DNA of 64,000 nucleotides. Origin: Escherichia coli (lineage in GTDB: Bacteria; Pseudomonadota; Gammaproteobacteria; Enterobacterales; Enterobacteriaceae). Below the pieces are notes generated by a model. That model was not told the DNA's origin. It searched no databases and saw only the letters and a list, made by a program, of their open reading frames with translations. The stretch lies in the NCBI RefSeq assembly GCF_016026235.1, contig NZ_CP065613.1. One strand, given 5' to 3'. This document shows, piece by piece, positions 48,183 to 51,100 of this stretch; position 1 is the first letter of the stretch, and the number at the start of each line of letters is the position of its first letter. Made by a program: the position numbers and the translations under genes.

Positions 48183-51100
48183 ACTTAATAGGGGCACCCC
48201 CCCACGATATCCGTCGTACCCTGATACGCCGAGGAATCGTTGTTAAGAGTCAGGATCCCGGTACCCAGTTTTGTCAAATCACCGCTACCGCTGATACTGT
48301 GCGTCATCGCCCAGCTACGCTCAGTGGAGATGGTGAGCAGGCCATTATTGATAACGGAAGCATCACCCAGGTTTTTCTGCTCGTTGACGCTGAGCGCGCT
48401 GCCTGTATCAATGTTGAATTGCCCCACAAAGCGGCTATTATCGCCATCCAGCTCTACATCTGTCCTGGCGGTTGCGCTCACGATACCCTTCCCGCTTATG
48501 CTATTACGCAGTTCGCCAGTCACGTTTTTTAGCGTTAACAGACCGTCATTGGCAATATTTCCTCTGCCTAACCCCTGCGTATTATCGAGGCTGACTTCCG
48601 CATTTGGGCTAACGCTGGTTAACGCATTGTAGCGTGCATTAAGCCCCTCGATAGCCAGCGTTCCCCCTGTAACATTCAGGTTTCCGCCACCTGTCAGTTC
48701 ACCCTGACTGATCCCACCTTTATTTACCGTCAGCGACCCTTCTTTGAACAAAACAGTCGAACCCATCTGCCCGGTGAATGTCTCTACCGTCTGCGTCGAT
48801 CCATTAAGATCGACGATGGCTGCGTTGCTGATGTTCAGTTCCCGGGTGTTGCCCAGCGCGCCATCCGCATCGGTACGTAATGTCCCCATCTGAACGTAGG
48901 TTGCCCCCTGATAGTCGTTCTGACCGTTGGAAAGCGAAACCTGTCGCACCGTATTGATTGCCAGATCCCCTTCACCGCCGATTTTTGCCGACATATCGGC
49001 CGTTGCGCCATAGGCTCCGCCATGTTCGGCTAACGTCAGCTTTTGCCCTCCATGGATGTTCAGCGCTTTCAGCCCATAGTTAACGTACAAACCATCACCT
49101 GGTGCGGTCGTGAGGCGGAATCCATAATCACCCTCGGCGACCACCGTTCCGTTTTGCGCAATGTGTAACGTTTTGTCCGCTTCCACCTCGTCGCCCTGTA
49201 AATCACGTAACGTTAATGAGCCACCCGACCCAATAACCGTTTGCGCCTTCACCAGTTGAACGCCGACATGGTTATCATCGTGTTCCAGCAAATTGAGCGT
49301 CGTCAGAGGGTTATTCGCCATGGGATCATTCCACGGTTTAGGCACGTCGATAAGCACGTCGCCCGTCCCGTTTACCTGATAGTTACGTCCTTTCCAGGTG
49401 TAGTCACCCGCGCCGACAACCAGCGTATCGACGCTGATATATCCCTCTGCAAGCGTCGCAGCAGGAATATCCGTATCGAAAATGAGCGTACCGCCATTCA
49501 TGGCCAGTCCACCAATGGATTGCTCTCCCACGTTTACCGATGTGGTATTTTCACTGTCAGACTGCAACATCGCGTGAGTAAGCGCAGCGGTGTTGTCGCG
49601 TTCCAGAGTGAAGGTACTGTCTTTCAGTTGGGCAACACCGGCGAATTCAGTCCCTGTTGCATGTGTAAAGCCAAACATCTTGTCGGAGGATGACAGCTGA
49701 ACTCGCATCAAGCCATCGCCTTTGAGCGCATTGGTCAGCGTGTAATCTCCTGCACTGTTCGTTGATGCGAGAATGTCGAGCGTACCGGGGCTTGCAATGG
49801 TTACTTCACTCGACCCCATGCCCGTTACCCCATCTGCCGTATGAGACGCAATGGTCAGGAGGCCGTCATTGACCAGCGTTTTACCGCTATAAGTATTCCC
49901 TGCATTGAACACCGTATGGCCTGCCGTCTTTATCGTCACCTGTAATCAGCATATCGACCTGGTAGCCGGCATCACTGTTATTAGTATGATTAAAGACAAA
50001 AACACCTTCGCCAGAGCCAAACTCTACTTTCGTCGCGTTGGTGATAAATCCGGCATCCGCCGCCGCCTCACCGTGAGCTGCACCAATGTTTAGCGTTCCT
50101 ACAGCAGGTTCAAAAACACCTAAGTAAACTTCTCCACCTTCGACATTCAGCGTGCCGCTATTCGTCAGGGTTAACGTACCCGTACCAGATGTCCCTACGT
50201 ACATATTGAATGTTTCAAGAAGAGAGTTCTGCCCATCCACTCTCACGTCGCCCTTGCTTTTGTCATTGAGAGCTATCTGTGTATCACGCGCTTTAACTAT
50301 ACCTCCGGTGGTAATATTCAGTTCACCCGTGCCTAATACACCGACCTGTGTCAATTGGGCGTTAGTAGATGATGTCTTTAAATTCCAGAGACTATCCGTT
50401 GAAATATTAACTATCCCCTTACCGGAGGCATTTCCTCCGATAAATCCATAGCCCGTTGAATTAAGGGTGGCACCATTACTGACATTTACGATACCGCTAC
50501 CAAAATTACCGACATTGATACCCACAGTATCGAACGATGATGTCGCATCCATCAGGTTCAGTGTGCCGATACCGCTTGCTTTATCGCCCAAAAAAGTAAT
50601 ATTTTGCGATACAAACTTACCGCCATCGCTAATATTGAGATTTCCGACGCCCGCAACACCAATGGTGGTATAGACATTCTTATTGACCTCCCATATCCCC
50701 CCCGTGGTGATGCTAACCTTCCCGACGCCGGTTTCTCCATAACCGAGAGAGCTTCCTCCGTTGCTGACAACAAGCCCCTCATTACTGATATTCATTTCGC
50801 CGTGGCCGTCATAACCAAGATTAGTTCCGAGATTAGTGATAACGGAGTTCTTATCCTTAACAGTAATGTTGCCTGTGCCTGTTTCTTTCATCCCCGCAGT
50901 GATAATTCCCGAATCTACTTTACCTTCACGCGAGACATTAAGTTCACCGTCGCCAGCATCACCGATATAGATATAGCGGAAAGCTTCGCCCGTTCCGAGG
51001 AAATTCCAATGCCCTTTATCGGTCACGTTGACGACACCGTGGGAACCGTCCTGAACGCCCACCAATGAATATTCTTTGTTATTAATTAGTCCATTATTGG

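Follow-up and report, generated by a model that had tools for sequence, protein, structure and literature searches.

A 17-bp deletion in the passenger region of a multiply interrupted ECSE_1600 family autotransporter gene of Escherichia coli

The autotransporter locus

The window, a stretch of 64,000 nucleotides (nt) from an Escherichia coli contig (NZ_CP065613.1), carries on its minus strand the remains of an ECSE_1600 family autotransporter gene (45161..52080). This pseudogene is split by a 64-bp duplication, a 17-bp deletion and a copy of the insertion sequence (IS) ISEc20. The analysis concerns the deletion, which lies where open reading frames (ORFs) of 676 and 584 amino acids (aa) overlap. 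The extent of the gene was set by synteny, the annotation of homologous loci, profile mapping and in-silico repair. The following features were recognized.

45161..52080, minus strand: whole ECSE_1600 family autotransporter pseudogene, with ATG at 52080 and stop codon at 45161-45163
51934..52080, minus strand: residual ORF of 48 aa, with the ESPR extended signal peptide, after which the duplication produces an out-of-frame tail and a stop
51907..52034, minus strand: lesion 1, perfect tandem duplication of 64 bp (2.0 copies at 100% identity), from reading of the sequence and Tandem Repeats Finder
49887..51917, minus strand: ORF fragment 1, 676 aa when counted from the earliest possible start, N-terminal part of the passenger with T5SS/PEP-CTERM-associated repeats
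49923..49925, minus strand: lesion 2, junction of the 17-bp deletion, from alignments to intact and other homologues
48185..49939, minus strand: ORF fragment 2, 584 aa, central part of the passenger, containing PATR repeats
48197..48203, minus strand: poly-G tract split in two, upstream half (7 G, read on the gene strand)
46748..48196, plus strand: lesion 3, complete ISEc20 of 1449 bp (IS110 family); the transposase gene occupies 46975-48171 (+)
46744..46747, minus strand: the same poly-G tract, downstream half (4 G, read on the gene strand)
45161..46672, minus strand: ORF fragment 3, 503 aa, autochaperone/pertactin region and beta-barrel (Pfam AC_1, Pertactin, Autotransporter)

The pseudogene is flanked by lsrK (52611-54203, minus strand) on one side and by hipB/hipA on the other. 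This is the position of the ECSE_1600 family, with lsrR and lsrK upstream and hipB and hipA downstream, as in the comparison loci L001-L005. Of 5,426 complete E. coli genomes, about 4,200 have a gene annotated as 'ECSE_1600 family autotransporter', always between lsrR-lsrK and hipBA. The corresponding locus of strain K-12 is presumably the pseudogene yneO/ydeK/ydeU, an 'AidA homologue'. Literature searches found nothing on the function of this autotransporter.

Intact copies of the gene (L003, L004, L005 and L017) have a length of 5421 nt and encode 1806 aa, comprising the ESPR extended signal peptide, T5SS/PEP-CTERM-associated repeats, PATR repeats, an autochaperone/pertactin region and the autotransporter beta-barrel. 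Further comparison loci were those of O157:H7 PV15-279 (L001), strain 2014C-3050 (L002), GCA_018228825.1 (L006), O91:H21 FWSEC0008 (L007), the NCTC assembly GCA_900449985.1 (L008 and L015), GCA_902503985.1 (L009) and GCA_001907545.1 (L016). No publication turned up under the WGS prefixes of the related assemblies.

The fragments were assigned with the profile NCBIfam NF011422 (ECSE_1600 family autotransporter; 1806 positions, curated cut-off 2335 bits). They map collinearly to positions 34-699 (676-aa ORF), 701-1279 (584-aa ORF) and 1304-1806 (503-aa ORF). Scored separately they reach 1449, 1298 and 1178 bits, so that no single fragment attains the cut-off; their sum, 3925 bits, lies above it. 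The intact gene L004 scores 4181 bits. In the databases the fragments bear misleading names, for instance 'lipoprotein' and 'autotransporter-associated beta strand repeat-containing protein', and fragments 1 and 2 are given later starts there (663 and 575 aa). Fragment 3 is identical to STL95456.1. The exact 48-aa protein is deposited as QPR10022.1 and others under 'hypothetical protein [E. coli / E. coli O124]', and the ORF called for this stub in L006 matches the ESPR profile PF13018. An ORF of 62 aa on the plus strand (49905..50093) is without support and was treated as chance.

The frame break between fragments 1 and 2

According to the ORF list, the 676-aa and 584-aa ORFs overlap over positions 49887-49939. 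They lie in different frames, since their starts are 1978 nt apart and 1978 mod 3 is 1. The first ends with ...ITGDDKDGRPYGVQCREYL (...LITGDDKDGRPYGVQCREYL) before its stop codon; the second begins at a GTG codon with TIKTAGHTVFNAGNTYSGK... (TIKTAGHTVFNAGNTYSGKTLVNDGLL). Both match NF011422 with E = 0, and because they do so collinearly the frame break is not a product of chance. The overlap in different frames that the first-pass annotation had described was thus borne out.

Alignments to the O157:H7 gene, another strain, two intact genes and an independent assembly gave a clean gap of 17 bp with identical flanks, ...GATAAAGACG[GAAAAGTGATCCATGAT]GCAGGCCATAC.... The lost bases, GAAAAGTGATCCATGAT, are nt 2093-2109 of the coding sequence (CDS) and comprise two bases of codon Gly698 together with K699-D703. 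The junction is ambiguous by one base, owing to a 1-bp microhomology of G. Across this site the protein of the intact gene L004 reads ITGDDKDGKVIHDAGHTVFNAGNTYSGKTL, and the repaired window protein is identical there. After the deletion the translation continues as G-RPYGVQCREYL, so that fragment 1 terminates in 11 aberrant residues and reaches a TAG stop 11 codons on.

The first-pass annotation had explained the break by a 1-bp indel near 49925-49940. A true frameshift lesion in the passenger domain was correctly recognized and placed to within a few bases; its size was revised to 17 bp, with the junction at 49923-49925. A deletion of 17 nt and an insertion of 1 nt have the same net effect on the frame and cannot be separated from the window sequence alone. 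A 1-bp indel, or a sequencing or assembly error at 49925-49940, is nevertheless very improbable, as the alignments give a gap of 17 bp, the site is not a homopolymer and the identical junction is found in at least three other assemblies, short-read and NCTC long-read assemblies included. These are GCA_018228825.1, GCA_900449985.1 and GCA_001907545.1, all with 100% identity at the junction; in the first, 11,877 nt are identical to the window. Since the junction recurs in independent assemblies at a site that is not a homopolymer, a sequencing artefact appears very unlikely.

Full-length matches were obtained in about 4,075 of the 5,426 complete E. coli genomes, and the deletion was absent from all of them; a few matches of at least 99% lie outside the top-ranked full-length places and were not inspected. 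The best full-length identities were 97.2% for a query of 651 nt and 93.4-94.3% for a query of 240 nt, which is the cost expected from a 17-bp gap and indicates that the other genomes carry the 17 bases. On the formal symmetry of an indel alone, the window could represent the ancestral state and the other genomes an insertion of 17 bp. We give this practically no credence: every phylogroup sampled has the 17 bases, with the intact genes L003, L004, L005 and L017 among the carriers, the open frame requires them, and they are retained in relatives that differ from the window by 0-1 single-nucleotide polymorphisms across the gene (L009, L023-L030).

The deletion appears to clip the start of a PATR-like repeat, since the stretch that follows it gives a match to positions 6-30 of the PATR profile that stays below threshold (E 7.6e-5; 23 bits, cut-off 27). 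The earlier description of a typical passenger repeat motif in the downstream frame is therefore reasonable, and weakly supported by the profile.

It was also considered that both ORFs might be joined by programmed +1 ribosomal frameshifting or translational coupling, with a functional adhesin still being made. ORF2 does lie in the +1 frame of ORF1, and the end of ORF1, AGG GAA TAC TTA TAG C, is superficially similar to prfB, with a Shine-Dalgarno-like AGGG located a few nt ahead of a codon and a stop. However, tRNA-Leu(UUA) cannot re-pair on UAU in a +1 slippage, as the shift from TTA to TAT is not cognate. All full-length homologues found in complete E. coli genomes have the 17 bases, and intact genes need no shift; homologues are without a frameshift at this site, and the prfB type is not supported. 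With a frameshifted signal peptide and a beta-barrel cut off by the IS, no joined product could be secreted, and the deletion arose after both of these lesions. We regard this explanation as scarcely credible, in agreement with the first-pass annotation, which had called programmed frameshifting unlikely.

Duplication in the signal-peptide region and insertion of ISEc20

The 64-bp duplication lies within the region coding for the ESPR signal peptide. The additional 64 nt shift the frame after about residue 40 and leave the 48-aa ORF; because the signal peptide is frameshifted, the 676-aa ORF seems to start at TTG without ESPR. The duplication is absent from O157, from the intact references and from the near-identical loci L009 and L024-L030. 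An overlap of BLAST alignments at 51961-51970 had at one point been read as a 64-bp deletion; this was rejected, as the sequence reveals a duplication of 64 bp. The first-pass annotation rightly spoke of a pseudogene hit several times, by an IS among others, and had left this lesion unnamed.

ISEc20 is complete (1449 of 1449 nt at 99.4-99.9% identity to annotated copies). Its transposase matches PF01548 (DEDD_Tnp_IS110, E 5.6e-48), PF02371 (Transposase_20, E 7.1e-22) and NF033542 (238 bits, cut-off 140), the NCBIfam profile for RNA-guided transposases of the IS110 family. Fragment 2 enters the element by 12 nt (codons Cys-Pro-Tyr and a TAA stop) and ends ...DIVGGCPY. The two halves of the poly-G tract add up to 11 G; intact genes have 8 G, and the closest relative without the IS (L009) has 9.

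In-silico repair

For repair of the gene, one copy of the duplication was removed, the 17 bases were restored, the IS was excised and the tract was set to G8. This yielded an uninterrupted ORF of 1806 aa with 43 substitutions compared to L004. Premature stops resulted with G7 or G9 instead of G8. In the whole-gene alignment no indel was found beyond the duplication, the 17-bp deletion and the IS with its extra G's. Since repair restores a clean ORF and the alignment has no other indel, the sequence indicates exactly three lesions, possibly in addition to an off-frame G tract, and no nonsense mutations. Because its fragments taken separately miss the family cut-off and the repaired gene has 1806 aa with these 43 substitutions, the gene of the window is a decayed member of the ECSE_1600 family, a pseudogene and not a functional gene.

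Order of the lesions

Proteins of possible intermediate alleles were predicted and looked up by exact sequence, and the DNA of the matches was compared.

IS only: predicted protein of 1282 aa, found; 13 contigs were read
IS and duplication, without the deletion: predicted protein of 1236 aa, present in a single assembly, GCA_001907565.1
Deletion without the duplication: predicted protein of 709 aa, absent from the collection by exact look-up

In L024-L030 the IS is present, and duplication and deletion are both absent. L023 carries the IS and the duplication, and the 17-bp gap is its sole difference from the window, no mismatch being present over 6.7 kb. In L009 all three lesions are missing; its tract is G9, and there is 1 mismatch in the gene. 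Because these near-identical relatives form a nested series, the most parsimonious order is insertion of ISEc20, then the 64-bp duplication, then the 17-bp deletion. As the last member of the series, the deletion is the youngest lesion, acquired in an already dead gene.

Interpretation of the deletion

The frame break is almost certainly a lineage-specific 17-bp deletion in the passenger of an AIDA-type (ECSE_1600) adhesin, reflecting neutral decay of a gene that had already been inactivated twice. In this order, ISEc20 was the first hit, inserting into the poly-G tract and parting the passenger from the beta-barrel translocator. Next, the 64-bp tandem duplication put the signal peptide out of frame. 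The 17-bp deletion came third, probably through an error of replication or repair at a microhomology of only 1 bp, and shifted the frame in the passenger; it has no function and represents neutral decay. The gene probably yields no product.

Some points weigh against this reading. The evidence for the deletion consists of assemblies, not reads. The assemblies that carry it may re-sequence the same strain from a culture collection, and their independence may be overstated. A strain with the deletion alone and one extra substitution would be missed by exact-protein look-ups. Finally, the tract may have been G7, G8 or G9 before the IS arrived, and the gene could have been off-frame by then.

The site of the deletion might also be a mutational hot spot or a selected target instead of being hit at random. 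A weak hint is given by O91:H21 FWSEC0008, which has an independent deletion of 11 bp located 6 bp downstream. However, this amounts to two events in thousands of genomes, for a gene of 5.4 kb that is often pseudogenised, and the three of seven other loci inspected that are annotated as frameshifted are so in different places. The microhomology amounts to 1-2 bp, and neither a flanking repeat nor a hairpin was noticed around the deletion by eye (no repeat or fold tool was run on the site). A hot spot or selected target is improbable.

In kind there is nothing novel here; this is ordinary gene decay and a textbook case of a multiply hit pseudogene. The three ORFs and the 48-aa stub in 45161-52080 should be annotated as one pseudogene and not as separate 'lipoprotein' and 'autotransporter' genes, and the adhesin can be assumed to be non-functional in this strain. 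The nested alleles offer a tidy, datable case of stepwise decay following a first knock-out. The source names of the exact proteins include 'Escherichia coli O124', and O124 is a classical enteroinvasive serogroup. From this name, the lineage of the window may be enteroinvasive E. coli (EIEC), and the decay of the gene may be linked to the reductive evolution of this group. The three lesions can serve as lineage markers for typing the E. coli O124 clade.

The poly-G tract and the target of ISEc20

The poly-G tract at CDS nt 3823-3830 varies in length among strains, G8 being the length in the intact gene. Of 4236 records, 2370 have exactly G8. Among 60 records sampled systematically, G9 occurred in 5, G7 in 3 and G10 in 1, i.e. 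about 15% were off-frame; long-read homopolymer errors may contribute to these counts. B2-like strains, and also L003 and L005, have an interrupted tract, GGGTGGTG. The variation could be due to slippage, as in a phase-variation-like switch, or to long-read homopolymer error.

ISEc20 is inserted at about 2,380 places in all. All six ISEc20 copies checked (the window copy and five others, L018-L022) sit within homopolymer runs of C/G. The five others, which come from other E. coli genomes and represent four distinct sites, are preceded by CCCC and followed by CCCC(C...); the plus strand of the window reads cccc-IS-ccccccc. Because all six copies lie in such runs, a sequence-specific targeting of C/G runs by ISEc20, possibly guided by a bridge RNA, is suggested. 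Literature searches found nothing on the choice of target by ISEc20.

Ahead of its transposase gene, ISEc20 has a non-coding left end of 227 nt (window 46748-46974, plus strand) with C- and G-runs. This left end forms a stable fold (-98.3 kcal/mol), better than that of shuffled sequences (z = -2.55). It fits a putative bridge RNA of the IS110 type. No Rfam family covers the ends of ISEc20, either at the gathering threshold or at E <= 1. That the G8 tract is both a contingency-type slippage site and a preferred, possibly bridge-RNA-specified target of ISEc20 is a tentative and rather doubtful proposal. If true, homopolymer tracts in genes for surface proteins would be systematically exposed to permanent knock-out by an RNA-guided ISEc20.

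Further observations in the window

Downstream of hipA, differences were seen in a fimbrial chaperone-usher cluster. L009 is without two window segments of about 450 bp (approximately 41207-41654 and 42106-42565), and L012 lacks about 1.8 kb compared to window positions 41172-42946. The NCTC locus L008 differs from the window by one 1-bp indel at some point between 40000 and 53672; for its PapD-like chaperone two ORFs of 97 and 149 aa are called, compared to 236 aa in L010 and L011. These differences could be further lineage-specific indels or assembly differences.

Window positions 4310-4368 (plus strand) match the Rfam selenocysteine insertion element SECIS_3 at 84.3 bits, the gathering score being 63. 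The element presumably lies within a formate dehydrogenase gene (fdnG-like).

Comparison with known systems

Two features of type Va autotransporters are lost in the window gene. The signal peptide (ESPR, PF13018) is present and not in frame with the passenger, the frame having been shifted by the duplication, and the passenger is not contiguous with the beta-barrel (PF03797), from which it is separated by the 17-bp frameshift and the 1449-bp IS. With the ECSE_1600 family (NF011422) the gene shares its location between lsrK and hipBA, and its fragments cover profile positions 34-1806 collinearly; in contrast to intact members it carries the 64-bp duplication, the 17-bp deletion and the insertion of ISEc20.

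The alleles of O157:H7 PV15-279, 2014C-3050 and O91:H21 FWSEC0008 are likewise annotated as 'frameshifted' at the same locus, but none of them has the 17-bp deletion. The first combines G7 with an 8-bp insertion (AATCGGCG) at about CDS nt 3983, and the second has G9 together with deletions of 12 bp and 233 bp (CDS nt 2676 and 4710). The allele of O91:H21 FWSEC0008, from a different lineage, is frameshifted by its 11-bp deletion (CATACGGTGTT) at about 4140-4150 of its locus, corresponding to approximately 49905-49917 in the window.

Pseudogenes of Shigella and EIEC provide a further comparison. IS expansion has been described in EIEC lineages, and 11-24% of the interrupted Shigella genes carry an IS plus other inactivating mutations (Hawkey et al. 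2020, PMC7373316). The gene of the window resembles these exactly in its combination of IS and non-IS lesions, with the IS coming first, and differs from them in its element, as ISEc20 is not among the five expanded IS of Shigella.
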